DNA of 64,000 bases from Candidatus Obscuribacterales bacterium (GCA_965228855.1 CBDDIJ010000005.1:1248001-1312000); one strand, 5' to 3'; counted from the first letter of the stretch, positions 1 to 19,337 are shown. The notes: a model not told the origin generated them from the sequence alone. A program made the numbers and translations.

Positions 1-3000
1 GCTACCTGAAGGGCGGCATGGGCGCCGTCGGTCAAACCATCAACATTATGGTTCCGAAGACCGGTGGCGCCAGCGTCAATCCGAGCTCTGATACGCAGCC
101 GCATTGCACCAACAACGTATCGGCCGACCCGATCGACATGTACCGCGGCGCGTACCTCTATCGCAATACCGATGTCACCGTAGGTAGTGGCAGCAATCCT
201 TACAGCCTGAGCTTCGAGCGCTTCTACAACTCGGGCGCACGCCTGGCGAACGGTCCTCTGGGTCTGGGTTGGAACCACAACTGGAACCACAGCCTGGCGG
301 TAAACAGCGACGGTCTGCTTGCCATGGCGAACGCCTCGCCCCTTGCCGGCGCCTCCGGTCTGGTGGCCATGTTCGTCACAGTCGACCTCTACCGCGACCT
401 GAACAAGCCCATCGACAAGTGGGTAACGGTCGCTCTCACGAATCGCTGGTTGCTCGATCAATCGCGCGACAACACGGTCGTCGTCAGCACGCCCGGCGAC
501 ACCCAGTTCTTCGTCAAGCGAGCCAACGGCTCCTACATCGCGCCTGCAGGCGAGCCGATTTCGCTCGTCAAAAACGTCGGCGGCGATTGGACCTACACCA
601 ACTCGCATCAGGTGAAGACCAACTACGACTCTTCCGGGAAGATCACTTCGATGGTCTATCCGCAAGGTGTGACGCTCACCTTCACGTACACGAGCGGCAA
701 GCTCACGAAGGTCGCGAACGGTTTGACCCGCGAGCTCAACTTCACCTACACCGGAAGCAAGCTCACGGGCGTGACGGCCGGGTCGAGTTCGGTTTCATTC
801 GCGTACTCGGGCGACAACCTGGTCACTGCGACCGACCCGGACAGCAAGAACACCACCTACGTCTACGACATTCCCGGTCGCATGACGCAGATGTTCCGCC
901 CGGCCAATCCTTCAAGCGCGATCATGACCAACGTCTACGATACGCTTGGACGCGTTCAGACGCAGACCGACGGGTCCGGCAACGTCTGGACTTACTACTT
1001 CGCAGGCTGGCGGTCGGAAGAGAAGAACCCGACGAATGCCAGTCGCGTTCAGTATTTCGACGGCGACGGTAACGTCACGATCGAAACAGACGCACTCGGC
1101 AACGACACAAAAATGTCGTACGACGGGCTTGGCAGGCTGATTGAGAAAACATTCGACGAAGGCAATCGTCGGTTGTTCACCTACGACGCCAACCACAACA
1201 TCCTGACGGTGACCGACAAACCGAAGCCCGGCTCGCTGGATCCGGACATCGTCAAAACGTACACGTACAACGCCACCTTCTCCAAGGTAGCAACGGAAAC
1301 CGACGGGCTCGGCAACGTCACGACTTACCAGTACAACGCCACGACCGGCACGCTCACCAAGAAGATTTTCCCGACGGTCGACGGCGTCGCCGCGGAGCTT
1401 AACTTCACCTACAACGCCCGCGGTCAGGTTTTGACCATCACGGACCAGACCGGCATGGTCACCGCGTTCGTCTACAGCGGCACAAACGAAACGCTCACCT
1501 CGGTGAAGAAAGACTCGGGCACGGGCAAGCTCAATCTGCTGACCCAGTTCGCGTATAGCACCGCCGGCGATGTCACAAGCATTACCGACCCGCGCGGATA
1601 TGCGACTTCGTTCACCTACGACAACGTGCGACGCCTCAAGCAGATTACGCCACCCTCGCCGTTCGCCGCGAACATCACGAAGTACACGTATGACGCCAAC
1701 GGCAACCGCACCAAGGTCGAGCGCTACGCGGGCGCCGGTCCGGTCTACCAGACGATTAACGCAAGCTACACGGTCGACAACCTGCTTGCCACTATGACCG
1801 ACCCGTCCAGCAACGTCACCACGATGACGTACAACAGCTTGCGTCAGCTCTGGAAACGAACCGACGCTCTGAGCCGCATCACGACCTTCACCTACGACCA
1901 GGTCGGCCGGCTCGCCACCGTCACGGACTCGTCCGGCACGCTGGCAGAAACGCGCTCCTACACGGCGAACGGTCTGCTCGCATCGCTGTTGGACCAGCGC
2001 AGCAAAACGACCACATTCGAATACGACGGCTTTGATCGGTTGAAGAAGCGCACGTTCGCGGACGCGACCTTCGAGTCGTTCACCCACGATAAGAACGGAA
2101 ACGTCCTGACCAAGGTCACTCGCAAGGGCGACACGATCACGAACACGTACGACGGTCTCAACCGTTTGCGCACCAAAGCGCCGGCGGGCATGGCGACTGT
2201 GACATATGCCTACGACCGCGCCAATCGACTCCTGAGCGCTCAAACGCCGGTGGTCTCGGGCGATCCGTCGACCGGCAAGATCGAGTTCACCTACGATGCT
2301 GCTGGACGGCGCCTGACCGAAAAGTATCCGGACGCGAAGACCGTCACCTACAAGCTCGATGCCAACGGCAACGTGACGAAGCTGACCTACCCGGGCGGAT
2401 ACTACGTCTCGCGTACGTACGACCAGCTCAACCGTTTGACGCAGATCAAACTGAACGGAGCGGGCAGTGCGGCTCTCACCTTCAGCTACGACGTGCTCGG
2501 TCGGCGAACCGCGCTCGGATACGGAAACGGAACCAGCACGACCTACACGTATTCGCTCGACGACATGCTGACCGCTCTGACGCAAACATTCTCCGGCTCC
2601 TCCGTCGCCTACTCCTATGGGTACGACGCAGCCCACGAACTGACCAGTCAGGGTGTCACCGACAGCAACTACATGCGTCATCCGTCCGGCGGTGGAACCG
2701 TCAACTATGGTACCGCCAATGATGTCAACGAATACCCGACGGTCGCAGGTGTCAGTCAGACCTACAATGCCAACGGCTGCCTCACCGGCGACGGCGTCTG
2801 GACTTTCGGCTACGACAACGAGAGCCACCTGACCTCCGCTGTCAAAACCGGCGTCAACGTCGCGTTCAGCTATGACGCCCTCGGTCGTCAGACCCAGAAG
2901 GATGTCGGCGGAACCAAGACGCGCTACATCTACAGCGGCTTCCAGCGCCTGGCCGAATACAACACCGCCGGGTCTCTGACCTCGCGATTTGTCTACGGCG

Positions 3001-3764
3001 ATGGCATGGACGAACCGTTGATTGTGTTGAACGCGAGCAACGTGATCACTGCTTACCTGCACCACGACAGCCTCGGCAGCATCGTCGCCACCTCCAACAC
3101 GAGCGGCACGGTGACCAACAAGAACAAATACATGCCGTGGGGCGAGGGCACCGTGTCCGGTACCACCTTCGGGTTTACCGGACAGCGCTATGACTCGGAA
3201 ACGGACTTGTACTACTTCAAGAACCGTTACTACTCGCCCGCGCTCGGCCGCTTCCTGCAGCCGGACCCGGTGTTGTACGACGACTCGCTGAACACGTATC
3301 AGTACGCACGCAACAACCCGCTCTCGCTGGCGGACCCCTATGGTCTGTCTGCTGAATCTATCAATTCAAGCGTAAACGTCGGCAGTTCGAGCGTGGTCGG
3401 TGCCATCGGAACCGGCGGCGCAACGGGTCTGTCGGGCAACACTTCAGTCGGCTCCGCCTCGCTGGGCTATGGCAACGCCGGCGGCTGCACCTGCGCCTGC
3501 GGCGACGGCGGTGGCTCCGGAGGTGGAAGCACCGACGGAAATAGCGTCGGCAACGGCAACACCGGCAATGGCACCAATGGCGGTGGCGCCAGCATCTACG
3601 GCAACTACGGGAATGGAAACGGCAACTCCGACGACGGCTCCGGCGACACCATCTACTTCGACGGACTCGACGTCTACAACCGGATCGCACCATGTGTTGG
3701 GAAATGCGTCCTAGAAGGGGGCAAACTGCAAGATTGTATTTTCATATGTTTCCATGGAGGATAG
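1..3764 (+). CDS. RHS/YD-repeat protein with RHS-associated core; 5'-truncated by the window
   Basis: Frame is open from base 3 (TAC CTG AAG GGC GGC ATG). DUF6531-like segment ADPIDMYRG...LSFERFYNS, many YD repeats, core YYFKNRYYSPALGRFLQPDP...YARNNPLSLADPYGL (DPYGL at 3333-3347), then a 138-aa C-terminal extension. Confidence 0.95.
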   Translation, partial: YLKGGMGAVGQTINIMVPKTGGASVNPSSDTQPHCTNNVSADPIDMYRGAYLYRNTDVTVGSGSNPYSLSFERFYNSGARLANGPLGLGWNHNWNHSLAVNSDGLLAMANASPLAGASGLVAMFVTVDLYRDLNKPIDKWVTVALTNRWLLDQSRDNTVVVSTPGDTQFFVKRANGSYIAPAGEPISLVKNVGGDWTYTNSHQVKTNYDSSGKITSMVYPQGVTLTFTYTSGKLTKVANGLTRELNFTYTGSKLTGVTAGSSSVSFAYSGDNLVTATDPDSKNTTYVYDIPGRMTQMFRPANPSSAIMTNVYDTLGRVQTQTDGSGNVWTYYFAGWRSEEKNPTNASRVQYFDGDGNVTIETDALGNDTKMSYDGLGRLIEKTFDEGNRRLFTYDANHNILTVTDKPKPGSLDPDIVKTYTYNATFSKVATETDGLGNVTTYQYNATTGTLTKKIFPTVDGVAAELNFTYNARGQVLTITDQTGMVTAFVYSGTNETLTSVKKDSGTGKLNLLTQFAYSTAGDVTSITDPRGYATSFTYDNVRRLKQITPPSPFAANITKYTYDANGNRTKVERYAGAGPVYQTINASYTVDNLLATMTDPSSNVTTMTYNSLRQLWKRTDALSRITTFTYDQVGRLATVTDSSGTLAETRSYTANGLLASLLDQRSKTTTFEYDGFDRLKKRTFADATFESFTHDKNGNVLTKVTRKGDTITNTYDGLNRLRTKAPAGMATVTYAYDRANRLLSAQTPVVSGDPSTGKIEFTYDAAGRRLTEKYPDAKTVTYKLDANGNVTKLTYPGGYYVSRTYDQLNRLTQIKLNGAGSAALTFSYDVLGRRTALGYGNGTSTTYTYSLDDMLTALTQTFSGSSVAYSYGYDAAHELTSQGVTDSNYMRHPSGGGTVNYGTANDVNEYPTVAGVSQTYNANGCLTGDGVWTFGYDNESHLTSAVKTGVNVAFSYDALGRQTQKDVGGTKTRYIYSGFQRLAEYNTAGSLTSRFVYGDGMDEPLIVLNASNVITAYLHHDSLGSIVATSNTSGTVTNKNKYMPWGEGTVSGTTFGFTGQRYDSETDLYYFKNRYYSPALGRFLQPDPVLYDDSLNTYQYARNNPLSLADPYGLSAESINSSVNVGSSSVVGAIGTGGATGLSGNTSVGSASLGYGNAGGCTCACGDGGGSGGGSTDGNSVGNGNTGNGTNGGGASIYGNYGNGNGNSDDGSGDTIYFDGLDVYNRIAPCVGKCVLEGGKLQDCIFICFHGG

Positions 3765-3782
3765 AGCAGACTCGGAGGTAAT

Positions 3783-3857
3783 AAGCGGCGCCACAAATTC
3801 CGCTGCTTGAGGGGAAATTAGCCATTGGTAGGCGAGCAGAAGTGGTGCTCGCCTACC
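3783..3857 (+). terminator. Two stem-loops downstream of the RHS gene (possible terminator or processing site)
   Basis: AAGCGGCG/CGCTGCTT (3783-3808, one G-U pair) and a perfect 12-bp inverted repeat GGTAGGCGAGCA/TGCTCGCCTACC (3827-3857). No strong U-tract. Confidence 0.5.
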
Positions 3858-3962
3858 CTCTCCACACGAAATCTGATTCAAATCTCCTAACTTGGTGTGT
3901 TGTGACAGTTAAGTACAGTGCGACTGGGTACAATAGCTACGTCACCACTCAAGTTGAAGAGC

Positions 3963-4685
3963 ATGGACGCGAAACAAATCATTGACGCGATGCGAGAAAA
4001 CTATCTTCGGTGCACATCCTACGAAGACCGCGGTTCGATCAGCAGTGTAAGTCGAACTCTCGCTAAAGACAAAGTACTCACCGGAAATTTCACAACCACT
4101 TTCATTCGTCCGAATTTACTCAAATTTGAGCTGAGCACAGATGAGGATGGACTGAAACGGCACTTCATACTTCAGGCTGATGGCGACTCGGTGCGGGCGT
4201 TCAAAGAGTATTCTCCAGAGGTGAAGCCTGTAAATACGACGGTGTTTGATTCTTTCAAAGGTGCGCTCCAAACCGTTGGCGGGATCACCGAAAACGTCAC
4301 CAACACAGTATTTTCGCTTCTGGGTGAAATCAATCCTAAATACTCCCTCTTAAATGCGAGCACACTGCAACGAGCCGATGATGAAATTATAGAGGCAGTT
4401 CCCTGTTATAAAATTGAGTTTGTTATAGACCCATTCGTCGCAAGCGAGGGAACTGCCTGGGTATCAATTGATTCATTCTCACTACGGAGATTAGAAGAGA
4501 GAACGGTTTACACGCAGGAGTTTAATGCCTTCGCGATAGAACAAACAAAACCTTTTCTTGAGGCAGAGGAAATATCCTTTAACGAAGAGGATCTGCACAT
4601 CAGCCTTACCCGCATCTTCAGTTTCGCAGAGGTCACTTTCAACAACAGCATTAGTATCGACAAAATTACAGACCGCAATTTCTGA
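3963..4685 (+). CDS. LolA-like-fold protein, array paralog 1 (putative RHS immunity)
   Basis: ATG at 3963 aligns with the starts of the six other paralogs. Motifs SYEDxG, FxRP, DGDS, CYxI, AWxSxD, FNNSI. No signal peptide. Confidence 0.8.
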   Translation: MDAKQIIDAMRENYLRCTSYEDRGSISSVSRTLAKDKVLTGNFTTTFIRPNLLKFELSTDEDGLKRHFILQADGDSVRAFKEYSPEVKPVNTTVFDSFKGALQTVGGITENVTNTVFSLLGEINPKYSLLNASTLQRADDEIIEAVPCYKIEFVIDPFVASEGTAWVSIDSFSLRRLEERTVYTQEFNAFAIEQTKPFLEAEEISFNEEDLHISLTRIFSFAEVTFNNSISIDKITDRNF

Positions 4686-4764
4686 AGTGATCGACAATTC
4701 GAAATCGACCTGCACTAACCAACCTAGATTGAACGCATTATTTAAGAGGCACGAGACAAAACAG

Positions 4765-5490
4765 TTGGAAGCAAAAAATATTCTTGACGTAATGCTCGAA
4801 AATTACGTTCGCTGCTCTTCCTATGAGGATGTTGGGAATGTGGTTGACGTTGAAGAGACGACATTGGGCGAGAGAGTAACAACTGGTAAATTCCGCACTA
4901 CGTTTATTCGCCCTGACTTGCTGGCATTCAATTTGGAAAGTGAAAATACGTTTGGTAATCATCGATTTCTTTTGCAGTCTGATGGAGAATCAATTAGAGC
5001 AATGAACTCGAGAATTTCAACGGATGGTGAGCAGAAACTGGTTACACAGGCTTACCCGTCACTGCCAGAAGCACTTTATACACAAGCTGGCTCTACGTTA
5101 GGAATAACTTCTCTGACATTCGGCTTGCTCAACGTCATCAATATGCTCTACGACATCCGAAATGCGGAAAATATTGAGCGCTTAGATGATGAAGCGCTCG
5201 ATGGGATAAGCTGCTATCGTCTGGCGGCGCTTATAAATCCGTTCGTCCGATATGAATCAGACGCCTGGATTGCAACAGACACGTTTCACCTCGTTAGATA
5301 CGAGCTCCGAACCGTTTTGACGGAGGAATTTCGAGAGTCCATAAAAGCTCTTGAGAAGACCGTTTCGCAGGCAGAGGGTATCACGGACGATGGGGTCGAA
5401 GCAATTGGTCGAACCCAAACCACTCACTATGAACGAGTAGTTTTCAATAATAGCATCACGATCGATAGGATTGTCGACAATCATTTTTAG
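4765..5490 (+). CDS. LolA-like-fold protein, array paralog 2
   Basis: TTG start at 4765 (LEAKNILD) chosen by alignment with the paralogs; same motifs. Confidence 0.8.
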   Translation: MEAKNILDVMLENYVRCSSYEDVGNVVDVEETTLGERVTTGKFRTTFIRPDLLAFNLESENTFGNHRFLLQSDGESIRAMNSRISTDGEQKLVTQAYPSLPEALYTQAGSTLGITSLTFGLLNVINMLYDIRNAENIERLDDEALDGISCYRLAALINPFVRYESDAWIATDTFHLVRYELRTVLTEEFRESIKALEKTVSQAEGITDDGVEAIGRTQTTHYERVVFNNSITIDRIVDNHF

Positions 5491-5679
5491 AAGAAGAGAA
5501 ACGCCGCTCCCATTGCTATGACCTATAATCGAGACTATCATACCGTTCTTCATAGATCGCGCCTCAACCATCTAGCATCAAATATGGTGCCCACTCCCCC
5601 GCAGAAGCATTCAGCCTTAATCAATAGCGGAAGACGCAATTCACGAGCGTGCCACCAGGCATAGAGGCAGACAAAACAC

Positions 5680-6405
5680 TTGGAAGCAAAAAATATTCTT
5701 GACGCAACGCTTGAAAATTACGTTCGATGCAATTCTTATGAGGATGAAGGTCGAGTAGTTGAGGTGAGCAAAACAACTGCGAGCGAACGAGTTGTTAAAG
5801 GAGCGTTCTCGACCATCTTTATTCGTCCAGACCTAGCGCGCTTCGACCTACGATGTTCGACCGATCCCGGTCGACATAGCCTGATTCTTCAAGCTGATGG
5901 GGATTCGACGAGAGCGATGTATACCATTGAAAAATCTACCGCCGAAAGCACAACATCTACACAAGCCTATCCATCGCTTCGGGACGCACTTCTAACATAT
6001 GCCGGTTTCACTTCTGGAGTTACGCCAACCACATTCGGCCTGCTGAGCGAGATAAAGATGGCTTACGACATCAGGAATGCAAAAGACATCCACAGATTGC
6101 CAAACGAAACCGTCAGCGATATTGAATGCTACAGACTATCTGCGGTGATTGATCCAGAGATCCGATATGATGCAGACGCATGGATTTCGATTGACACTTT
6201 CTGCGTCGTAAAGTACGAAAAGAGGACGACGATGACAGAGAAAACTCGGGACGCCACGCGAAAGCTAGCGGAGCAATTCCGGAAGTCCGAGGAAATCCCA
6301 GACAATGGAGCAGAGTTCCTCTATTCTAGTGCAACAATTTGGTACGACCGAGTTGTTTTCAACAACAGCATAACAATCGACAAGATCATATCCAATCAGC
6401 TTTAA
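5680..6405 (+). CDS. LolA-like-fold protein, array paralog 3
   Basis: TTG start; closest to paralog 2 (EAKNILD, YDIRNA, shared upstream GAGGC..AGACAAAACA). Confidence 0.8.
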   Translation: MEAKNILDATLENYVRCNSYEDEGRVVEVSKTTASERVVKGAFSTIFIRPDLARFDLRCSTDPGRHSLILQADGDSTRAMYTIEKSTAESTTSTQAYPSLRDALLTYAGFTSGVTPTTFGLLSEIKMAYDIRNAKDIHRLPNETVSDIECYRLSAVIDPEIRYDADAWISIDTFCVVKYEKRTTMTEKTRDATRKLAEQFRKSEEIPDNGAEFLYSSATIWYDRVVFNNSITIDKIISNQL

Positions 6406-6433
6406 GCTCGAAGTTCCCAGCAGGATTACGAAG

Positions 6434-7168
6434 TTGAACGCAACGCAAATTATCGAGGCAGTTCGTGCCAATTATATTAAGTGCGCTTCTTACGAGGATA
6501 AGGGTACAATCAAGGTCACAAACAAAACCCGCATCAAAGAAAGCGTCACCAGGGGAACCTTCTCACATTTATTCGTTCGCCCCAACCTTCTTAAGTTTCA
6601 GCTAAACACGGAAGATGATGTACTTAAGCGGCGTTTTCAACTTCAGTCGGACGGAGATTCTGTTAGAGCAATTGAAGATTTTGAGCCAGATGGGATAAAG
6701 CCAACCAGAACTGAAGCATATAGCTCATTACACACGGCACTGAGAACGGTAGCCGGAGTTACGTTTGGAGTGACGAATGCAGTATTCTCACTTCTTGGAG
6801 AAGCAAATCCAAAATATTCTTTGGTCAACGCACTCGAGGTGCGAAGGGCAGAGGACGACACAATCAACAACCTGCCCAGCTATAAAATCGAATGCATGCT
6901 TGACCCGCTCGTATCAATCGAAGCAACAGCCTGGATTTCGATTGACACGTTCTCATTGCTGCAATATGAGCAACGTTCATCCTACACAGCGGAGTACCTG
7001 AGATTCGTTAAAGAACAGACTAAGATTTTTTTTGAAGCCGAGGGACTGCCAAGTTTAAGCGAGGAAAGCGAGTCTCTCAGCAGTGTTTACAAAATCAGAT
7101 TTGGTGAAGTCACGTTCAACAACAGTATCAACGTTGACAGAGTGCTAAACAACAGCCCTCTAGAATGA
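6434..7168 (+). CDS. LolA-like-fold protein, array paralog 4
   Basis: TTG start; motifs SYEDKG, FVRPNLLKF, SDGDSVRA, NPKYSL, FNNSI. Confidence 0.8.
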   Translation: MNATQIIEAVRANYIKCASYEDKGTIKVTNKTRIKESVTRGTFSHLFVRPNLLKFQLNTEDDVLKRRFQLQSDGDSVRAIEDFEPDGIKPTRTEAYSSLHTALRTVAGVTFGVTNAVFSLLGEANPKYSLVNALEVRRAEDDTINNLPSYKIECMLDPLVSIEATAWISIDTFSLLQYEQRSSYTAEYLRFVKEQTKIFFEAEGLPSLSEESESLSSVYKIRFGEVTFNNSINVDRVLNNSPLE

Positions 7169-7596
7169 GAATTTGACACACAAACTTAACGAGACTACTG
7201 AGGCGTTGTAGTTTCCGTACATCGTCGATTCAATGCGGTAAATTTGAGCTACTTTTGCAGCCGAAGAAGGTTGGCGAGCCATCGCCTTCCATTCTATAAA
7301 AACAGCTGTCGAGATTTGGAAGGAGACTTCAGGCTTCCTAATTGACACTACCTACGGTGCTTACTATAACGCAAAGTATAAGAGCTACGTATACATTCTA
7401 CGTAACCAATGAGACTGAACGTCTGAGCGAAACGTTTTATGACAGTTAGAAGAAGCCAGCAAGCCACAAACGTACCGAAATTTCGCAGACATTTTTACAC
7501 CGTCGAGTGTCGGCCATTTTTCATAGCTGCAAATCGGCCGCTGCGCCCGGGGTACAATATTTTCATCACCAGTTCTTTCAGTAAACAAAAGAGACC

Positions 7597-8313
7597 ATGG
7601 AAGCAAACCAGATAATTGATGCAATGCGAGCAAACTATATACATTGCTCGTCCTATGAAGACGTCGGCTCCGTGCGCATTGTTACTCAGACTCAAGCTTC
7701 GGAAAAATTACTCATTGGAAATTTTGCCCACGTTTTTTTACGACCAGATCTCTTAAAGTTGGAGCTTTTCACAAAGGAACAGGAAGTTGAACGACGATTC
7801 GTTATCCAATGCGATGGAGACTCCGTCCGTTCATTCGAGGAACATAGTACTCAGGGGACGAATACATTTGCATACGACTCGTTTGCATCGGCACTCAAGA
7901 CTACAGCCGGGATCACGGCCGGAGTTACTAATGTTGTGTTCTCGCTTCTCGGTGAAATCGATCACGGATATTCGATGTTAAATGCAAATCAAATGAAGAG
8001 AACTGATGACCAAGTCCTAGATGGACAAGTTTGTTTCACTATTGACTTTGTTATAGATCCCACAGTTTCAATTGAGGCAACGGCTTGGATATCCGCTGAC
8101 AACTTCTCACTGATGAAATTTGAACAGAGATCAAATTTCACTGCCTCCTACCGAGATTCCATACGAGAGTATGCCCGGATGTTTTACGAAGCCGAAGGAA
8201 TACCAATGAAGGACTCGGACGAGGCAATCACCAGAGAAATGATAATCAAGTTCGACAATATTACTTTCAACAACAGCATAAACGTCGATAAGCTGATAAG
8301 CCATGTCTTCTAG
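7597..8313 (+). CDS. LolA-like-fold protein, array paralog 5
   Basis: Same family motifs; ATG start. Confidence 0.8.
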   Translation: MEANQIIDAMRANYIHCSSYEDVGSVRIVTQTQASEKLLIGNFAHVFLRPDLLKLELFTKEQEVERRFVIQCDGDSVRSFEEHSTQGTNTFAYDSFASALKTTAGITAGVTNVVFSLLGEIDHGYSMLNANQMKRTDDQVLDGQVCFTIDFVIDPTVSIEATAWISADNFSLMKFEQRSNFTASYRDSIREYARMFYEAEGIPMKDSDEAITREMIIKFDNITFNNSINVDKLISHVF

Positions 8314-8453
8314 CTACTTTCGCTTGCAACCAGCGCACATGCAGGGCCTAGCTGGAGTTGCCCAAGCGAGAACACCAGCGCGCGAGAAGGGAGGAAAACC
8401 AGGTCAAACGATACCTCTCTGCAAAGACTTTGACAAAGCGCTAACAGGTTCTG

Positions 8454-9182
8454 ATGGACGCCAAACTAATTATCGATGCGATGTTGCAGAATTACCGGCG
8501 GTGTACTTCATACGAAGATACCGGAGAGGTCCTTGAGTTGATTAAGTATGGTGACCGTGAGCAAGTAAACGTTGGTCATTTCTCAACGACATTCGTTCGA
8601 CCCGACCTGCTGAAATTTGAACTGCGAATGCGAGAGTTTGATAATCAGCGTCGTTTCGTATTACAATCAGACGGAGAGGCGATACGTTCACTGGAGGTCA
8701 TTAGCGGACCTTCTCGAGACGATACCACGTCAGTCAGAGCTTACGATAACTTCGAGGCTTCGCTACAAACTGTAGCTGGTCAAACCAAAGGAATCACCGC
8801 CCTGAACTTCTCGCTGATAGGAGCGCTTCCAAAGTCCCGCCAGTTCCACGAAGTGAACACGATTATCCGGAACGATGACGATACAGTCGACGGAATTCTC
8901 TGCTATAAGATTGAGTCTCAAATAGACCCACTTGCGGGAGTCGTGGCAACCGCTTGGATTTCTGCGAGCGACTTTTCCATACGAAAATATCAACTCGACA
9001 CAGTTTTCAGCGAGCAATTCCTGGTCGCTGCCAAACACTCAGCCCGACAATTAGCCAAGGCGGAGGGATATGAATATGACGGAAAGAACGAGTGCGTCGG
9101 GTTTGTTCACACTTTCAATTTCCTGGAGACGACATTTAACAACAGCACCAACATAGATAGGATCACCACTGAGTTTTCGTAG
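8454..9182 (+). CDS. LolA-like-fold protein, array paralog 6
   Basis: Same family motifs; ATG start. Confidence 0.8.
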   Translation: MDAKLIIDAMLQNYRRCTSYEDTGEVLELIKYGDREQVNVGHFSTTFVRPDLLKFELRMREFDNQRRFVLQSDGEAIRSLEVISGPSRDDTTSVRAYDNFEASLQTVAGQTKGITALNFSLIGALPKSRQFHEVNTIIRNDDDTVDGILCYKIESQIDPLAGVVATAWISASDFSIRKYQLDTVFSEQFLVAAKHSARQLAKAEGYEYDGKNECVGFVHTFNFLETTFNNSTNIDRITTEFS

Positions 9183-9256
9183 CCCCAGAACAAAAACACG
9201 TGATCGCTTCGGAATGAAAGTACAACGTTAGCCAGACTCACCGCAAGATTAAGAAA

Positions 9257-9979
9257 ATGGACGCGAAACAAATCATTGACGCGATGCGAGAAAACTATCT
9301 TCGGTGCATATCCTACGAAGACCGTGGCTCGATCAGCCGTGTAGGTCGAACTCTCGCTGAAGACAAAATACTTAGCGGAAAATTTACCAACACCTTCATC
9401 CGTCCGAATTTACTCAAATTTGACCTGACTACGGATGAGGACGGGCTGAAACGGCACTTCATGCTTCAGGCTGATGGCGACTCGGTACGGGCGTTCGACG
9501 AACACAGCCCAGACGTAAGACCTGTACAAACGCTTGCGTTTGATTCTTTCAAAGGTGCGCTCCAGACCGTTGGCGGGATCACCGAAGGCGTCACAAACAC
9601 AGTGCTTTCACTTCTGGGTGAAATCAATCCTAAATACTCCCTCTTAAATGCGAGCACACTGCAACGAGCCGATGACGAGATTATCGAGGCAGTTCCCTGC
9701 TATAAAATTGAGTTTGTAATAGACCCATTCGTCGCAATCGAGGGAACTGCCTGGGTATCCATTGATTCATTCACGCTGCGGAGACTAGAAGAACGAACGG
9801 TTTACACGCAGGAGTTTGGTGCCTTCGCGATAGAACAAACAAAAATTTTCCTTGAGGCCGAGGGAATATCCCACAACGAAGAGGACCAACCTATCAGCCT
9901 TACCCGCATTTTCAGTTTCGCAGAGGTCACTTTTAATAACAGCATTAGTATCGACAAAATTACAGACCACAGATTCTGA
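9257..9979 (+). CDS. LolA-like-fold protein, array paralog 7 (near-duplicate of paralog 1)
   Basis: About 30 differences in 240 aa from paralog 1 by manual comparison. Confidence 0.8.
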   Translation: MDAKQIIDAMRENYLRCISYEDRGSISRVGRTLAEDKILSGKFTNTFIRPNLLKFDLTTDEDGLKRHFMLQADGDSVRAFDEHSPDVRPVQTLAFDSFKGALQTVGGITEGVTNTVLSLLGEINPKYSLLNASTLQRADDEIIEAVPCYKIEFVIDPFVAIEGTAWVSIDSFTLRRLEERTVYTQEFGAFAIEQTKIFLEAEGISHNEEDQPISLTRIFSFAEVTFNNSISIDKITDHRF

Positions 9980-10239
9980 CACCCCCATGCATATCCATCA
10001 CTGCTGTTCGATTCTTAGTCGGCGATACAACAGCATAGCGCTAGAGCCAGGTCAGCCGGATTAGACCTCCAGGGCGGGATGCGATTGATACTACAGGCGG
10101 TGCCTACGGTTAACGTCTAGTAAAATCTCCAAAGAGCCTGATGGAAAAGTAATTAACAGCAACGAACCAATGCGTGGAGAATGACTGCGAATCGGGCAGA
10201 ATATTTTCAGGCAAACTCTACTTTCATTTGGAGAACAGA

Positions 10240-10932
10240 ATGCTACCGAAATCATTGCTCGGCGTGCTCGCAGGATTATTGTTAGTTGCCCCTGCATTCT
10301 CTCAACCCAGCCCGGAAGAGTCTCTTCAGCGACTGAAGGAAGGGAACAAGAGCTACTTGAACGGGATTCAGCGGTTTCCAAAGATCGATCCGATCCGACG
10401 GCTAAAGACCGCTGTTGAAGGCCAGAGGCCAATCGCAACAGTGCTTGGATGTTCCGACGCGAGGGTGCCGGTAGAGGTAGCTTTCGATAAAGCGTTCGGC
10501 GATCTCTTCATCGTCCGCGTGGCAGGGAACGTCTGCCAGATGGCGGAGTTGGCATCAGTGGAGTACGGCGTTAATTATTTGAAGACGCCGCTAGTAGTGG
10601 TGCTCGGGCACACCAAGTGAGGTGCCGTGCATGCGGCAGCGCAAGGCACTGAGTTAAGCGGCAGCTTGCCGAAGCTCATGGCGGAGATTCGTCCGGCGAT
10701 AGACGCTACGCGGCGCAAACATCCTGAGCTCAAAGGCGAAGCGCTGGCCGAGGCTGCTGTTGACGAAAACGTCTGGAAATCGATTGAAGATCTTCTGGGC
10801 GGTAGCGAACCCATCAGAAAAGCCGTCCATGAAAAACGTGTCCTTATTGTCGGTGGTGTCCGTGATATAAAGACGGGCAAGATTACTTGGTTGGGCGAAC
10901 ATCCTGAGCAAGCGCGCCTGGTTGCGCAATAA
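10240..10932 (+). CDS. Periplasmic beta-class carbonic anhydrase with in-frame TGA at the HxxC cysteine (selenoprotein candidate or nonsense mutant)
   Basis: GGAG then ATG at 10240; signal peptide MLPKSLLGVLAGLLLVAPAFS; motifs LGCSDARV, GDLFIVRVAGN, SVEYGV, VVLGHTK*GAV. Track ORFs 10174-10620 and 10627-10932 share one frame and are separated only by TGA 10618-10620. Confidence 0.9.
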
Positions 10933-11225
10933 ATCAATGGAATTGGGGAGGCTGATGCGGCGTTTCGGCTTATGGCAGGATAGCGCCAATGGGTCAGGGT
11001 TCAGACTGCCGCGGGCAAATCGCGTACCTCTTTTAAAATTCGCGCCTTTTGACCTGAGTACTCGAGCATTGCCACATCATGAGGAATTCAACAGCAGCAG
11101 ACTAAACAACTTTGTAATATCTCCGCAGTATTCTGATTTCATCGAACCGATTCCTGAATGAATCGACTGCTAACAAGCGCTCTAGCGTCTTCCCAGCAAG
11201 TTTTTATTCTCTGAAGGTATTTACT

Positions 11226-11513
11226 ATGATGAAATCACTCCCGGCCGTTTTCCTCTCTATCGTCCTCATGCAGTCAGCAGCACAGGCATGCGAAGGTGCG
11301 CACACCGAATGCCTCAACGTTCAAAAGTATTCGACCGTCGAAGCCTGCAATGAAGCGATAGCGAGAGACAAAACCGATGTTCACGCGTGGCTTGATCGCG
11401 GGGTTCATTACTCCAGGAAGGGACTCGAACTTGCAGCAGCAGCGGACTTTGACGAAGCCGGTAGGTTGATGGAGAGCGCAGAACCAAAAGTGAAGGTTGC
11501 ATCTAACAATTAA
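11226..11513 (+). CDS. Small secreted protein with a TPR-like repeat
   Basis: Signal peptide ending AAQA; ACNEAIARDKTDVHAWLDRG...AAADFDEA resembles a TPR. Confidence 0.65.
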   Translation: MMKSLPAVFLSIVLMQSAAQACEGAHTECLNVQKYSTVEACNEAIARDKTDVHAWLDRGVHYSRKGLELAAAADFDEAGRLMESAEPKVKVASNN

Positions 11514-11525
11514 GCGAGGATCGAA

Positions 11526-12314
11526 CTACCCTTCCTCATCCAAGAGGTCCAGAAGTGGTGTCCGCGACAATAGCTGCTTGATCTGTTTTTCGTGATCGTT
11601 CAAAAAATTCCTGGTCACCTGATAGTGTTCGGTTTCGGTGTAATCAACCTCTCGAATTCCAGAATCATCGAATAGATAGATTCTCGCATTGGGATAAGCC
11701 ATCAGGATTGGGGAGTGGGTCGCAATGATGAATTGTGATTCGTTCAAGATCAACTGATTGATTCGAGCCAACGCTTCAAGTTGACGTGTTGGAGATAATG
11801 CCGCCTCTGGTTCATCCAGAAGGTAGAGACCATTGCCTTGAATAGACTCATTTAGGATGGTCAAAAACGATTCACCGTGAGACCGATGATGAAGTGACTT
11901 TCCGCCGTAACGACCGTAGACTATTCCCGCTGGAGCGATTCCCTCTTTCACCATATCCTCGAAATAGGTGCCGACATTGAAAAAGGTTTCGGCTCGCAAG
12001 AAAAATTTGTCGCGCGGCCGTTGAAAACTTCGACGCGGGCGCATGAAGTTGTGAAGCTTAGAAAGACCGCTATCGTCAGAGATTTCGAAGTTGCCGGTTC
12101 CGCCCTGTGCACCGAAGTCCATTACTGTAGCTATCGCCTCAAGCAGCGTCGATTTGCCCGATCCGTTCTCGCCAATAAAAAAGGTCAGATCCCTGTCAAA
12201 CTCGATTTCGTCGATGTGCCGAAGAGCAGGTATGCAAAAAGGATAGGAGAAACCAGCATCACCTTCCGGTCGGCGAATCGTAACAGCCTTGAGATACGGA
12301 CGAGGATGCAGCAT
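11526..12314 (-). CDS. Predicted ABC/AAA-type ATPase (COG3910-like)
   Basis: Walker A GENGSGKST, FFLRAETF, SHGESF, Walker B LLDEPEAALSP, IATHSP. Confidence 0.9.
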   Translation of the reverse strand: MLHPRPYLKAVTIRRPEGDAGFSYPFCIPALRHIDEIEFDRDLTFFIGENGSGKSTLLEAIATVMDFGAQGGTGNFEISDDSGLSKLHNFMRPRRSFQRPRDKFFLRAETFFNVGTYFEDMVKEGIAPAGIVYGRYGGKSLHHRSHGESFLTILNESIQGNGLYLLDEPEAALSPTRQLEALARINQLILNESQFIIATHSPILMAYPNARIYLFDDSGIREVDYTETEHYQVTRNFLNDHEKQIKQLLSRTPLLDLLDEEG

Positions 12315-15287: not shown

Positions 15288-18200
15288 TCACTTGACATCA
15301 CTCGGCTTTACTGCGCGATATTCGGTCCGCAAAGCGGTCATATAACCGGATCCGTGGACACGAACCTCGTAAAACTTGCCGTCCCCGTCGCGGTAAATTG
15401 TCCGATTCGTGCCGCTATCCTTTCCTACTTCTTGCAGTTTCAACTTATCGAACAGCTTAGCATTGTAAAACTGCTCTTTCGGCTGAGTGGGTTTACCGGA
15501 CCGGACTATGGCCTCTCCCGTTCCAGCATCCGCGGCGATGAAGATGGCGTCCTTTCCATCAACTTTGATTTTCTGTCCGTGTTTGAGTGATGAGATGTCA
15601 CGGATCGTTTGAGACGAAGCTTCCTTCTCTGTTGCCGTTCGTTGCAGCTCGGTCGCGGAACGCTCTGTCTCCGTGCCCGGTCGTTCCAGCTCGGTTGCTG
15701 GGCGCTCAGAGGCTGCCGAAAGGCGCTCGGCTGGTTGCGCCTGCTCCGGCGTGACAACCGTTTCAGACACCACTGATGGTCCCTTCTGGCTCTGAGGAAT
15801 TATGTCAGCTGGAGCAACTTGTTCAACTTCCGGTGGCTTCGCGGATGTCGTTTCCACCGGTTTCACTACTTTAGGTTGAGCCGCAACCACCGTTTCCGGA
15901 GGTCTCGGGGGCTCGGCAAGGACTTTGGCTGTTCTGGAACCGGTTTGATGGGCGACGGTCTTGTCGCCCTCAGGCTTTGGGACGTCGCGGTTCTCCCCTC
16001 TCGAATCACGACCGCCGTCGCGTCCGCCGCGACCGCCATCTCGTCCACCGTCCTTTCCACCATCTTTGCCGCCAAAATTGCGTCCGCCACCGTCGCCAAA
16101 GTCTCGCGGCGGTCTGGGGTCACGAATCTTACCAGCAATCATGTCGTTTACGATTTGTTGGGTTCTCTCGAAGTGTGGATTGCCCTGCGGAACCAGATTC
16201 TCAGCGACAGCCATTGCGAGCTGTTGATGCGCTTTCGTCAACTGACTGCCGTTGTCGGTGCGATGATTTTTGTTGCCGAAGAAAATGGCGTCGAGCAAAA
16301 TTTTGACGTCGCCAATGTTTTTTGTCGTTGGCAATACGTTTTGAAGCAACTCTTTGTACTCGGGCGCGGCCCGCTCAGGATCGAGCTTTTGCAAGATGTT
16401 GCGAAGCACGGTTTGATCTTGAGCGCCAAGGCGCAGCAGATTGTCGCGAATAATAGGGTCTTGAACCTGCATCAACTCTTCCAGTTTCGTCAGGCGGAAA
16501 CCGGCATCATTGGTTGGTGGTTTGAACTCTCTCTCAGGTTTACCGTCAGAACGTGGTCTTTTAGGTGGCTGTGTTTGTCGCGCCGCTTCCATTGCTTCGG
16601 CTAGCTCAACCGGCAATTTGCTGGAGTAGGTTGGCGCATCACCAGCAAACTTTGCATCGGTGACATATTGTCCCTTGAGACCTTCGACGTACCAGCGCGG
16701 GAGCGCTGCGTCAAGAACTTGGTGAGGTTGCGCTTCAGGACCTGCGCTGCCCTTTGCTTGTTCAAGTCGAGCGTCGACATAGAACCTTGCCCACTCGCTA
16801 AACTCTGGAGTCTCTCCAGTTTTCGGAGCGCTCAAAAATTGTCGAATTGCCTCGAGCGAGGGCGGAGGAGTAGCACCTTCAGGAGTCGTCTCGCCGAACC
16901 GATACTGCCTGTAAGCTTCGGCAACTTGTGGTGAAAGCAAGGCGTCACGGCCACCTACCCACAATGAACGCAAATTTGTGGCACTATTACTGGTGGCACC
17001 TTCCGGCTTCGCGTAAGCGTAGTCCAGCCATTTAGCAAATTGTTCGGTAGTCATATCGCCGAATTTTTCGGACAACAACATTGCTTCGATTTTCTTGCGC
17101 GAAGCGGGCGATTTTTCGAACGCTTCCATCCGCTGTTCCATCACCTTGGCGGGATTCTCAGCGCTGGCTAAACGGGCAGCCTCGGGAGTTTCCAGCTGAA
17201 GTCTGGTTCTTTCGGACTCGGGAGTGCGACCGGCAACTCCTTCGGTTTCAACAAACGGTTTAACACCACTTGCGATACCATTAACGTCGAGGTTGCCGAG
17301 TCTGGCCAGACCGTTGTTGAACTGGTCCACAACCGCTCCCTCACGAGCCTGCTCGGGAGTCAGGTCCAATCTGATTCGTGGTTGAACGGCACCGCCTTCG
17401 TTCACGACGGAGGAAGATTCTGCGGCTTTCGGTCCGACGTTCGCTGCAATCTTTCCATCGGCGACGTCTACAAACCGGCTCAGATTGCTTGTTCCGAAAT
17501 AGTAGTCCAGGGGTCCTGCTACCTTGCTGTATCGATTCTGTTCACCATATTGACGAGCCCAATCGTGTAAGTCTTTATTTTCGTTGAGCCATCTGAAGAC
17601 ATCGTGACGGAAATTGATGTAACCATCAACGTCTTGAGGCATCTCGCGTACGGTTTGCATAAATTGCGCCCAACGCTGATACTGATCCACGGTAGCGCCG
17701 GGTGTTTTCAATTTGATGTCGCCTTCGATGACGCGATGCTCGACGCCTTCCGGCGGCAAGTACGCCTCGCGGATCAAGGTCATCATACGAGGATCGTCTG
17801 CGTAACTCTTCGCGACTTGCGACATCGATTCTTTGAGCGCCTGCCCTTCGGGGCTGCGAGCGAACTCAAAAAACTGTTTCACTTGTGCAGGCGTGCAATT
17901 TGCATCCGAAGCTTCAAACGCCAGGTTCACACCTTTTTCAAGAGCCAGCTCCAGTCCTTTCGGAACAGAGATCTCGGTTTCTACAGGAGCGGCAACTTTC
18001 TCTGGCGCATCGACAGGCTTGCCGGCGCTGTCCGTTTCAGTCGGCTTCGCAACGGCTTCTGTTTCAACAGGTTTAGCAGCACCTTCGGTTTCTTTAGCGA
18101 CTCCGGCCGTTTCCTTCGGAGGCACGACGACTTCCGCCTCTGCTTTGACCTCTGCGGGCGGCTTTTCGCCTGGTGCCACTCTCTCGGGTGGAATCTCCGG

Positions 18201-19337
18201 AGTCCACCCCTCCACCTTGTCGCCGCTCGCCATGGCTCGACCAAGTGCGAGACCGCCTACAAGCCGTCTGGAGCTAGATCCCGATTCACGCGGACCGCCC
18301 AGCAAACTGCCTTTCACGGGAGCGCCATCGCCTGTGGTGCTTGGCGCCTTGCCGTCGGTCGTTGCGGTTTTCGCCCGCTCAGCGAGCATTGACTCGAGAT
18401 TAGTTTGTCCGGCTCTGCGCGACGAATACGCCTTTGCAATCTCAGAAAGCGGAACCTCAGATCCGGGTATGCGATGCATGCCACCCAGCGCGCCGCCGGC
18501 GAACGTCATGGTATACATGCCTTCGAATCGTTCCTGATTGGTAGCCCATCTGCCCTGAGTCAACCTGGCATTCACGTCGGCGTTGACGAGACCGGCCGGA
18601 ACGCCGGGCAATGCGCCATGCAAAACATCATTGGCGACCTTTACGGCGCCGGGTGCTTCTGCTATCGCGCCAGCCAACGGACGAGTGAGATGACGAAGAC
18701 CAACACTACCGGCAGTGAGCGTACCGAAGGTCGCTGCCCCGGTGATACCGTGTTTGGTGCGGGTCTCCCAGAATTTATTCATGTCTTGCTGCTCGACCGG
18801 TCTCAGCAGGAAGTCATATGCGAAGCCTGCCGCCGCGCCATCCGCTATCAAACCGGCGTTCGCGACCGACATGAGTCGGGAACTGGCAAGGACGCCTGCT
18901 TCGGTTTTCGCCGCGAAGGATAAACCGGACTTAGCTAGAAGACCTTTGGTAGCAACAAAAGGTGCAATCATACCCAGACCGCCACCGATCTGCTGCGCAT
19001 GCCAGCGAGCAGTACCGAACTTTTCATGTTCGGGAGCCGGCATTACATCAACGGCGTTGGCGATGTTGGTTTTAATATTGGCGGAATTGAGAGCCTTATC
19101 TGCAATCTGACCGAGTGACTTAACCGGAGCCTGCAGACCCTGGTAGAGTGCCGTATAGCCGGCTTCGCCTACGAGATCGACAGCATTTGCGCCGGCGCGC
19201 TGGTTGTCGTGGCGCTGCTGTGTCAGTGACAGCGTCGTCATCAAAGACTCGCGTGCTTCGTCACTGAGCTTGCCGGTCGGGGCTATGCCCTTGTCGTCGG
19301 CGGCTGGTTTTTCAGGTGTTTCAAACGGATTTGCCAT
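15288..19337 (-). CDS. Large hypothetical protein (Gly/Ala-rich hydrophobic N-terminal region, short repeats, RGG-rich segment)
   Basis: 1349-aa ORF; no recognisable family. Confidence 0.8.
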   Translation of the reverse strand: MANPFETPEKPAADDKGIAPTGKLSDEARESLMTTLSLTQQRHDNQRAGANAVDLVGEAGYTALYQGLQAPVKSLGQIADKALNSANIKTNIANAVDVMPAPEHEKFGTARWHAQQIGGGLGMIAPFVATKGLLAKSGLSFAAKTEAGVLASSRLMSVANAGLIADGAAAGFAYDFLLRPVEQQDMNKFWETRTKHGITGAATFGTLTAGSVGLRHLTRPLAGAIAEAPGAVKVANDVLHGALPGVPAGLVNADVNARLTQGRWATNQERFEGMYTMTFAGGALGGMHRIPGSEVPLSEIAKAYSSRRAGQTNLESMLAERAKTATTDGKAPSTTGDGAPVKGSLLGGPRESGSSSRRLVGGLALGRAMASGDKVEGWTPEIPPERVAPGEKPPAEVKAEAEVVVPPKETAGVAKETEGAAKPVETEAVAKPTETDSAGKPVDAPEKVAAPVETEISVPKGLELALEKGVNLAFEASDANCTPAQVKQFFEFARSPEGQALKESMSQVAKSYADDPRMMTLIREAYLPPEGVEHRVIEGDIKLKTPGATVDQYQRWAQFMQTVREMPQDVDGYINFRHDVFRWLNENKDLHDWARQYGEQNRYSKVAGPLDYYFGTSNLSRFVDVADGKIAANVGPKAAESSSVVNEGGAVQPRIRLDLTPEQAREGAVVDQFNNGLARLGNLDVNGIASGVKPFVETEGVAGRTPESERTRLQLETPEAARLASAENPAKVMEQRMEAFEKSPASRKKIEAMLLSEKFGDMTTEQFAKWLDYAYAKPEGATSNSATNLRSLWVGGRDALLSPQVAEAYRQYRFGETTPEGATPPPSLEAIRQFLSAPKTGETPEFSEWARFYVDARLEQAKGSAGPEAQPHQVLDAALPRWYVEGLKGQYVTDAKFAGDAPTYSSKLPVELAEAMEAARQTQPPKRPRSDGKPEREFKPPTNDAGFRLTKLEELMQVQDPIIRDNLLRLGAQDQTVLRNILQKLDPERAAPEYKELLQNVLPTTKNIGDVKILLDAIFFGNKNHRTDNGSQLTKAHQQLAMAVAENLVPQGNPHFERTQQIVNDMIAGKIRDPRPPRDFGDGGGRNFGGKDGGKDGGRDGGRGGRDGGRDSRGENRDVPKPEGDKTVAHQTGSRTAKVLAEPPRPPETVVAAQPKVVKPVETTSAKPPEVEQVAPADIIPQSQKGPSVVSETVVTPEQAQPAERLSAASERPATELERPGTETERSATELQRTATEKEASSQTIRDISSLKHGQKIKVDGKDAIFIAADAGTGEAIVRSGKPTQPKEQFYNAKLFDKLKLQEVGKDSGTNRTIYRDGDGKFYEVRVHGSGYMTALRTEYRAVKPSDVK

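Follow-up and report, generated by a model that had tools for sequence, protein, structure and literature searches.

The stretch analysed here (64,000 nucleotides of the 8.2-Mb genome of a Candidatus Obscuribacterales bacterium, G000:C5:1248001-1312000; hereafter the window) begins inside a gene for an RHS/YD-repeat protein, and behind this gene seven open reading frames (ORFs) on the + strand occupy positions 3963-9979 (Table 1). The ORFs are co-oriented and encode paralogs of 238-244 amino acids (aa). In pairwise comparison the other array copies are 38-88% identical to copy 1, and 38 alignment columns are invariant across all seven, including the motifs SYEDxG, FxRP, xDG, AW and FNNS. A profile built from the seven copies and run against the genome recovered every copy at E-values of 1e-108 to 1e-119, and the array is therefore not a product of chance. 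The start of copy 2 is most likely the TTG at 4765, because this codon aligns with the start of copy 3. A first-pass annotation of the sequence had described seven such paralogs with these motifs behind an RHS gene, free of signal peptides and lipoboxes and in a block richer in AT than the RHS gene, and each of these descriptions agrees with what was measured: none of the seven copies has a hydrophobic N-terminus (15-residue Kyte-Doolittle mean of at most 0.45 within the first 45 aa) or a lipobox, and the GC content is 45.8% in the array, 59.9% in the RHS part and 51.4% in the genome. A scan of 3500-10400 for promoters and terminators gave counts no higher than the level of shuffled sequence. 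None of the six frames of 3765-10100 encodes a twin-CX3C peptide of the kind described below, and orphan tips of that kind are thus not interleaved with the copies, as the annotation had also stated; hidden orphan tips were considered for the 429-bp gap at 7169-7596 and rejected, as none was found.

The gene upstream of the array is a true RHS gene. It matches RHS_repeat (PF05593) at 1.9e-71 over 20 stretches, TIGR01643 at 1.1e-45 and the RHS-associated core (Rhs_assc_core, TIGR03696) at 1.7e-22, with 79.7 bits against a cut-off of 32.5, and its domain order is an N-terminal region with a weak transglutaminase-like match, DUF6531, RHS repeats and the RHS-associated core. The N-terminal region is about 700 aa long (L010:15921-18200) and its sole match is this weak one, to Transglut_core at 4.7e-5. 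The core ends in a DPYGL motif, which serves known Rhs proteins as their site of self-cleavage. Behind it lies a C-terminal tip with a CTCAC motif in its linker at 3486-3500, and comparable CxCxC-like motifs recur in the tips of L011, L012, L033, L034, L061 and L070. The last part of the tip is a strain-variable module with the arrangement C-x3-C-x(9-13)-C-x3-C (the twin-CX3C motif), in which the four Cys are invariant in eight of eight aligned tips, namely those of the RHS genes of six genomes and of two short RHS-core proteins ahead of distant family members (L040 and L045).

Table 1. Features of the RHS locus and its array, segments of the window compared by blastn with the syntenic locus of the sister genome G043, and further members and RHS-core ORFs of the same genome. 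Positions are those of the window unless a contig is named.
Feature	Position	Strand	Remarks
RHS/YD-repeat gene, 3' part	1..3764	+	about 1947 aa; starts at G000:C5:1245921, about 2.1 kb upstream of the window
DPYGL motif ending the RHS core	3333..3347	+	computed position
RHS C-terminal tip	3348..3761	+	138 aa; Gly/Ser/Asn-rich low-complexity linker, then Cys hairpin
Strain-variable 31-aa module DVYNRIAPCVGKCVLEGGKLQDCIFICFHGG	3669..3761	+	twin-CX3C motif at 3693-3749
Swapped cassette	3680..4765	+	1086 bp; last ~28 RHS codons (tip variant), spacer, copy 1
Copy 1	3963..4685	+	240 aa; predicted LolA fold; likely cognate immunity protein for the window tip
Copy 2	4765..5490	+	241 aa; TTG start; 98% identical in G043, where it directly follows the other tip variant
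Copy 3	5680..6405	+	241 aa
Copy 4	6434..7168	+	244 aa; G043 ortholog frameshifted
Copy 5	7597..8313	+	238 aa
Copy 6	8454..9182	+	242 aa; G043 ortholog without the first ~22 codons
Copy 7	9257..9979	+	240 aa; 88% identical to copy 1
Segment compared with G043	1-3679		95.8% identical
Segment compared with G043	3680-4765		no counterpart at this place in G043
Segment compared with G043	4766-8409		98.3% identical
Segment compared with G043	8410-8519		deleted in G043 (110 bp)
Segment compared with G043	8520-12000		95.5% identical
Distant member L008/L047	G000:C3:3655648-3656145	-	beside an HtrA-like protease and a tetratricopeptide repeat (TPR) gene
Distant member L009/L048	G000:C3:845943-846164	+	beside a major facilitator superfamily (MFS) transporter
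Other RHS-core ORF	G000:C5:1616942-1619113	-
Other RHS-core ORF	G000:C2:585085-590697	-
Other RHS-core ORF	G000:C5:239073-245888	+

Comparison of the window with the syntenic locus of the sister genome (L011) placed a sharp boundary within the tip. Homology stops exactly at the 31-aa peptide and is found again from the start codon of copy 2 onward, and for this reason we regard the tip and copy 1 as a swapped cassette. The replacement segment in the sister genome is 242 bp long and consists of a different hairpin (CVANC...CIAGC) and a spacer, after which the ortholog of copy 2 follows directly. The first-pass annotation had proposed an allelic hydrophobic peptide delivered by the RHS protein; the short C-terminal peptide is indeed allelic and exchanged together with the first copy, while the word hydrophobic does not fit well, as the peptide is a predicted amphipathic four-Cys helical hairpin of 31 aa whose highest 19-residue hydropathy is 0.98. 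Two array genes of the sister genome are damaged: the ortholog of copy 4 (L011:7227-8017) is split over two frames, and that of copy 6 (L011:9165-9923) has lost its start and first ~22 codons through the 110-bp deletion corresponding to window 8410-8519.

Array content varies further in metagenomes. On one contig (L079) the window tip has two substitutions, and behind it lie copy 1 (98.75% identical), another gene like copy 1 (92.5%) and one like copy 3; the gene order in L080 is 5 and 6 (both fragments), 7-like and 2-like. Logan contigs of four public runs were compared with 3300-10100 at a likeness of at least 90%, and these contigs diverge from the window at 3667/3668, or at 3694 in one run. 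In run X6 a 4.8-kb contig leads from 3667, by way of 461 other letters, to the copy 6 start codon at 8454. Other joints connect 5504 to 9132 in three runs and 4727 to 5673 in one, and so skip copies 3-6 or copy 2. By their position behind other tips, copy 2 would be the counterpart to the tip of the sister genome and copy 6 the counterpart to the tip on the X6 contig.

The pairing of tip and downstream gene extends beyond these two genomes. A family match is present in 59 of the 107 genomes of the order, and wherever a genome has a member at E<=1e-30, as six do (G000, G043, G046, G047, G049 and G102), such a member lies directly behind an RHS gene of ~1900 aa with a Cys-hairpin tip. There are seven copies in G000 and one each in G046, G047, G049 and G102, and G043 has six positions, two of them damaged. 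RHS-core proteins just upstream of close members carry the twin-CX3C peptide or a Cys-rich variant of it, the sole exception to a Cys-rich tip ahead of members being one weak, Cys-less case. In the genome of the window, the twin-CX3C motif occurs in one of four RHS-core ORFs, that of the window, and all seven strong family matches of the genome lie directly behind it, with two weak matches on another contig. These two are distant signal-less members, neither of them near an RHS gene. The three other RHS-core ORFs of the genome have unrelated tips without a Cys hairpin and no strong family match nearby. At the level of the order, 19 loci reached through a family member were inspected; eight have an RHS-core ORF with a Cys hairpin upstream (across a 1.2-kb gap in L040) and at one more (L046) a fragment of an RHS gene and, separate from it, a twin-CX3C ORF lie 1.7 kb upstream. 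The linkage to RHS genes that the first-pass annotation had expected thus holds for the close clade in every genome examined, and distant members often stand apart.

Adjacency of this sort could be incidental, with a cytoplasmic DUF2092-like family (see below) having been amplified locally in a recombination hotspot that happens to adjoin an RHS gene. RHS genes are abundant in the order (about 470 core matches in 92 of 107 genomes) and so are family members, so that some adjacency is expected by chance, and 10 of the 19 member-reached loci have no RHS gene as neighbour, the neighbours including kinases, peptidases and two-component genes. To set against this we have a sample drawn without regard to the tip, the best 30 RHS-core loci of the ~470 matches. 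Its lone twin-CX3C tip (L061) is also the only one ahead of a strong member (1.6e-22). At L070 a CGCGC motif and a four-Cys variant tail precede a weak member (1.4e-7), at L069 a Cys-less, Pro-rich tip precedes another weak member (3.3e-7), and the remaining 27 loci, one of them cut by a contig end, have other tips and no member. The adjacency is therefore specific to one tip type. The background frequency of the motif is low (within the last 60 aa it is present in 94 of the genome's 55,382 ORFs, or 0.17%), the pairing is repeated in different genera as well as in a second family of the order, where G003 has a Gly-zipper linker and Cys-rich tip with a member directly after it, and the RHS-linked members form one clade. 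We consider an incidental association very improbable.

Two further loci were observed in this survey. The RHS ortholog of G046 (L012:9002-9742) is missing ~19 residues including DPxGL, yet its Gly-rich linker and twin-CX3C tail are present and a single LolA-fold gene follows; the tip of this protein may remain uncleaved. An island in G019 (L046:14-4262) combines an RHS-repeat fragment and a small twin-CX3C ORF with a DUF6968 gene and a distant member of the LolA-fold family, and may be a degraded or mixed toxin-immunity locus.

The array proteins gave nothing significant in scans of the seven copies against Pfam, NCBIfam and PADLOC, and a search of the PDB sequences with the family profile returned no match at E<=10; a weak NCBIfam match to the SitI6 immunity protein (E 0.21) was dismissed as noise. 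A word-indexed search of 5.8 billion proteins retrieved 24 relatives only, one of them named as from an Obscuribacterales metagenome-assembled genome. An AlphaFold (AF2) model of copy 1, built from a 26-sequence alignment (A2), shows an antiparallel beta-barrel that is not closed, with helices at the N-terminus and inside the chain (12 strands and 4 helices in all), at a pLDDT (predicted local distance difference test) of 90.9 and a pTM (predicted template modelling score) of 0.85. With this model Foldseek gave 72 PDB matches at E<=1e-3, the best at 5e-8, and the matches listed are LolA-superfamily proteins or putative members. VIA-align Z-scores were 14.4 for a Bacteroides LolA-like protein (4mxt), 14.1 for LprG with triacylglyceride, 13.6 for RseB, 11.4 for MucB with MucA and 10-12 for LolA/LolB, over structural matches that span residues 1-240. 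In the ESM Atlas, the named clusters among the matches listed for copy 1 are of the LolA superfamily with scores of 0.91-0.93. The modelled fold of the array proteins is accordingly LolA-like, and the call that the first-pass annotation had made from motifs is borne out by the model. The first helix of the fold begins right at the N-terminus in the copies and likewise in all relatives retrieved and inspected. Residues C17 and C148 (A2 columns) are conserved in at least 90% of the 26 LolA-fold members.

At the level of sequence profiles, the family connects to Pfam DUF2092 (PF09865). None of the seven window copies matches DUF2092 at E<=1, and four of the 26 family members do, at best with an E-value of 3.8e-7; P0038, a relative without a signal peptide, passes the cut-off of 21.2 bits with 27.9. 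An exhaustive HMMER profile search of 1.84 billion representatives returned 1651 clusters at E<=1e-3, among them 445 that pass E<=1e-10 and 15 that pass E<=1e-30. The family profile reaches DUF2092 proteins at 1e-20 to 1e-37, 13 of the 30 top hits scanned against Pfam match DUF2092, and many top hits have extra domains or space for a signal peptide ahead of the domain. Judged by these profile matches, the array family appears to be a divergent, signal-less branch of DUF2092.

A fold of this type raises the alternative that the array proteins are not immunity proteins; they may be cytoplasmic chaperones or adaptors that keep a Gly-rich amphipathic tip soluble or aid its loading into the RHS shell or an export machine. 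In such a way Eag-type chaperones serve effectors with transmembrane segments. The LolA fold shields hydrophobic moieties, as in the ligand-bound LolA and LprG structures among the matches, the copies are cytoplasmic, the tip linkers of some relatives resemble glycine zippers, and a cognate chaperone would be exchanged with its tip just as a cognate immunity protein would. A chaperone would not require seven diverged copies, however, six of which have no matching tip in the genome, and the strain-variable copy content and the decay of orphans in the sister genome are the behaviour of immunity genes. In addition, adaptor genes usually lie upstream of their effector. We therefore regard the chaperone explanation as unlikely.

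The relationships among the copies point to their origin. A quick IQ-TREE phylogeny of 36 members placed 17 RHS-linked rows in one clade (SH-aLRT branch support 87; 16 of them at 98), within which the arrays of G000 and G043, 13 copies in total, are grouped as a single clade (SH-aLRT 99); the pair L040/L045 and L046 fall among unlinked distant members. Such a grouping points to copies that arose by duplication and then diverged within the lineage, rather than to unrelated immunity families having been collected, and the earlier description of all members as one family stands. Copy 1 is nearest to copy 7 (88% aa identity, synonymous divergence, dS, of 0.32). Divergence along the locus is mosaic, with dS rising from 0.02-0.04 in copies 2, 3 and 5 through 0.12 in the RHS core to 0.43 in copy 7. 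Purifying selection acts on every copy, with a ratio of nonsynonymous to synonymous divergence (dN/dS) of 0.09-0.53 for orthologs and 0.24 for copy 1 versus copy 7.

The partner of these proteins would be the short module at the end of the RHS tip, which is likely a toxin or a specificity element. AlphaFold predicts two helices for the tip (residues 13-30 and 34-43) with a turn between them and a pLDDT of 81-85 over the Cys region, which would place C23 and C27 on helix one and C37 and C41 on helix two. The ESM Atlas held no usable match for the tip. Prediction of a complex between copy 1 (A2) and the 45-aa tip (A3) scored 0.25 against a mark of 0.32, without controls, and speaks neither for nor against binding. 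The Cys-hairpin tail might instead be a structural, metal-binding or targeting element, and the LolA-fold paralogs partner or cargo proteins that bind, for example, a lipid or small hydrophobic ligand. Such an explanation would suit the four invariant Cys and the CxCxC motif, which would be apt for metal binding, the lack of a toxin family in the tip and the many unrelated contexts of the wider family, and binding between tip and putative immunity protein is itself something that we infer. It accords poorly with the variability of the tail, since hypervariability confined to this one segment, and homology that breaks off sharply where it begins, would not be expected of a structural element, and with its place behind DPxGL, the usual seat of Rhs toxins. 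Small non-catalytic tips behind Gly-rich linkers are moreover on record, as described for Ntox38 and W-TIP (PMC3482391). We hold a non-toxin tail to be improbable.

Taken together, the data suggest that the locus is probably a polymorphic toxin system of the RHS type, whose tip is a very small Cys hairpin without enzymatic function and whose array supplies immunity proteins, cognate and orphan, that are cytoplasmic and have a LolA fold. In its layout the locus is of the Rhs type: it has a conserved GC-rich shell and core, a sharply bounded variable tip, an AT-richer gene co-exchanged with the tip and strain-variable related genes downstream. On this basis copy 1 is likely the cognate immunity protein of the window tip, and copies 2-7 are likely orphan immunities against the tip variants of related strains. 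In the mechanism we propose, the RHS shell would enclose the ~138-aa tip, which would be released after cleavage at DPYGL and would act without catalysis, either on a membrane or by binding a cell component; immunity would come from the cytoplasmic LolA-like half-barrel, whose cavity would sequester the amphipathic hairpin. The last step is modelled on the behaviour of LolA-fold proteins elsewhere, where a segment of a partner protein is held by RseB/MucB and acyl chains by LolA/LprG. That the tip is toxic and bound by the array proteins, that this binding is allele-specific and how the tip is delivered are matters of inference. Three features are unusual for such a system: the variable module is just 31 aa and not an enzyme, the putative immunity proteins have a predicted LolA fold and yet are cytoplasmic, and the array is homogeneous and without orphan tips.

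Several observations weigh against this interpretation. In a peptide with four Cys, disulfides and thus action outside the cytoplasm would be expected, and the putative immunity proteins are cytoplasmic. Pfam recognises no family and no toxin domain in the 138-aa tip. Delivery is unaccounted for, since TssC and PAAR have no match in the genome and no signal peptide is visible by eye at the RHS N-terminus. With an overall dN/dS below 1 there is no gene-wide signal of diversifying selection. Since more than half of the member-reached loci have no RHS neighbour, immunity is not the only role of the wider superfamily, and the Cys-less tip of L069 shows that a weak member can follow a different kind of tip. 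Finally, the metagenome joints come from contigs assembled and compared at 90% likeness, some of which may be chimeric.

A bolder form of this interpretation, which we advance tentatively and rate a little below an even chance, is that the 31-aa hairpin represents a new class of RHS-delivered non-enzymatic peptide toxin, that the LolA fold has moved to the cytoplasm as an allele-specific sequestering immunity protein, and that the seven copies match seven tip alleles circulating in the Obscuribacterales. Neither a LolA-fold immunity protein nor a twin-CX3C RHS tip was found in the literature searched, which misses most subscription journals; in one preprint, a figure showing a polymorphic toxin family has LolA among its domain abbreviations. 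Such systems have, to our knowledge, not been described in this lineage. What would be new is the immunity family and the miniature tip, placed within the known Rhs framework; the first-pass annotation had gone further in proposing a new kind of system, and here it overreached, as the locus falls within the established theme of RHS toxin-immunity pairs with orphan immunities. If the interpretation is correct, it would add a new immunity family on a fold known so far from exported lipid and lipoprotein carriers, and the tip would be among the smallest RHS toxin modules, with specificity held in about 31 residues. Related genomes, with one to seven copies each, would then offer a natural series of allelic peptide and binder pairs convenient for studying the evolution of binding specificity. 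The series would sit in a little-studied lineage without type VI secretion genes, and it would bear on how RHS proteins are delivered without a type VI secretion system (T6SS).

Two genes downstream of the array were also observed. At 10174-10932 (+) a beta-class carbonic anhydrase gene (Pro_CA) is split by an in-frame TGA at 10618-10620, in the context GHTK-TGA-GAV, and the syntenic gene of L011 has TGC (Cys) at the corresponding codon (11362-11364); either the conserved Cys codon has undergone a nonsense change or the TGA is recoded. At 15288-19337 (-) lies a 1349-aa ORF that has no Pfam match at E<=0.01 and is conserved in the G043 locus.

Among known systems, the locus most resembles the Rhs/YD-repeat toxin-immunity systems with displaced orphan modules, sharing with them a GC-rich shell, a core that ends in DPxGL, a C-terminal tip that varies, a downstream gene richer in AT and co-exchanged with that tip, and further copies that differ by strain. 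It departs from them in that the variable module is only 31 aa long and has no enzyme domain, the orphans are of the immunity type only, belong to a single family and come without orphan tip fragments, and the host is a non-photosynthetic relative of cyanobacteria that has neither T6SS sheath nor PAAR genes. Poly-immunity or orphan-immunity arrays adjoin toxin loci, and like these the window has tandem immunity-type genes behind one effector, with a content that varies by strain and decays in some; unlike them its array is homogeneous, with one family whose copies are 38-88% identical.

The array proteins share the predicted fold of the LolA/LolB superfamily (LolA, LprG/LppX, RseB/MucB and DUF2092) over the whole protein at Z-scores of 10-14.4, and profile matches connect their family with DUF2092 (PF09865) at the sequence level as well. 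The MucB-MucA entry among the structural matches illustrates that a LolA fold can hold a protein segment, as RseB/MucB do. Carriers of the LolA/LolB type are exported, in contrast to the window copies, which have no signal peptide or lipobox and are further set apart from the superfamily by invariant motifs of their own (SYEDxG, FxRP and a C-terminal FNNSxxxD) and by their linkage to RHS tips.

Twin-CX3C helical hairpins are known from the small Tim proteins and the alpha-hairpinin peptides of plants. The window hairpin has the same C-x3-C...C-x3-C spacing on two predicted antiparallel helices and differs in being part of a bacterial RHS tip; the likeness is one of spacing and predicted shape and implies no kinship in sequence. 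A further parallel may be found in Ntox38 and W-TIP, which Zhang et al. (2012, PMC3482391) describe as small non-catalytic polymorphic toxin tips behind glycine-rich linkers. Like these, the window tip has no catalytic residues and a strong tie to a single immunity family. In that source, Ntox38 is predicted to be all-beta with a PXhhG motif, occurs on actinobacterial WXG/type VII secretion (T7SS) proteins and pairs with Imm56, and the term LolA has no occurrence in the 300,000 characters searched of the article. The window tip differs from Ntox38 as described there in being a predicted twin-CX3C helical hairpin on an RHS protein, paired with a family of putative LolA-fold proteins.

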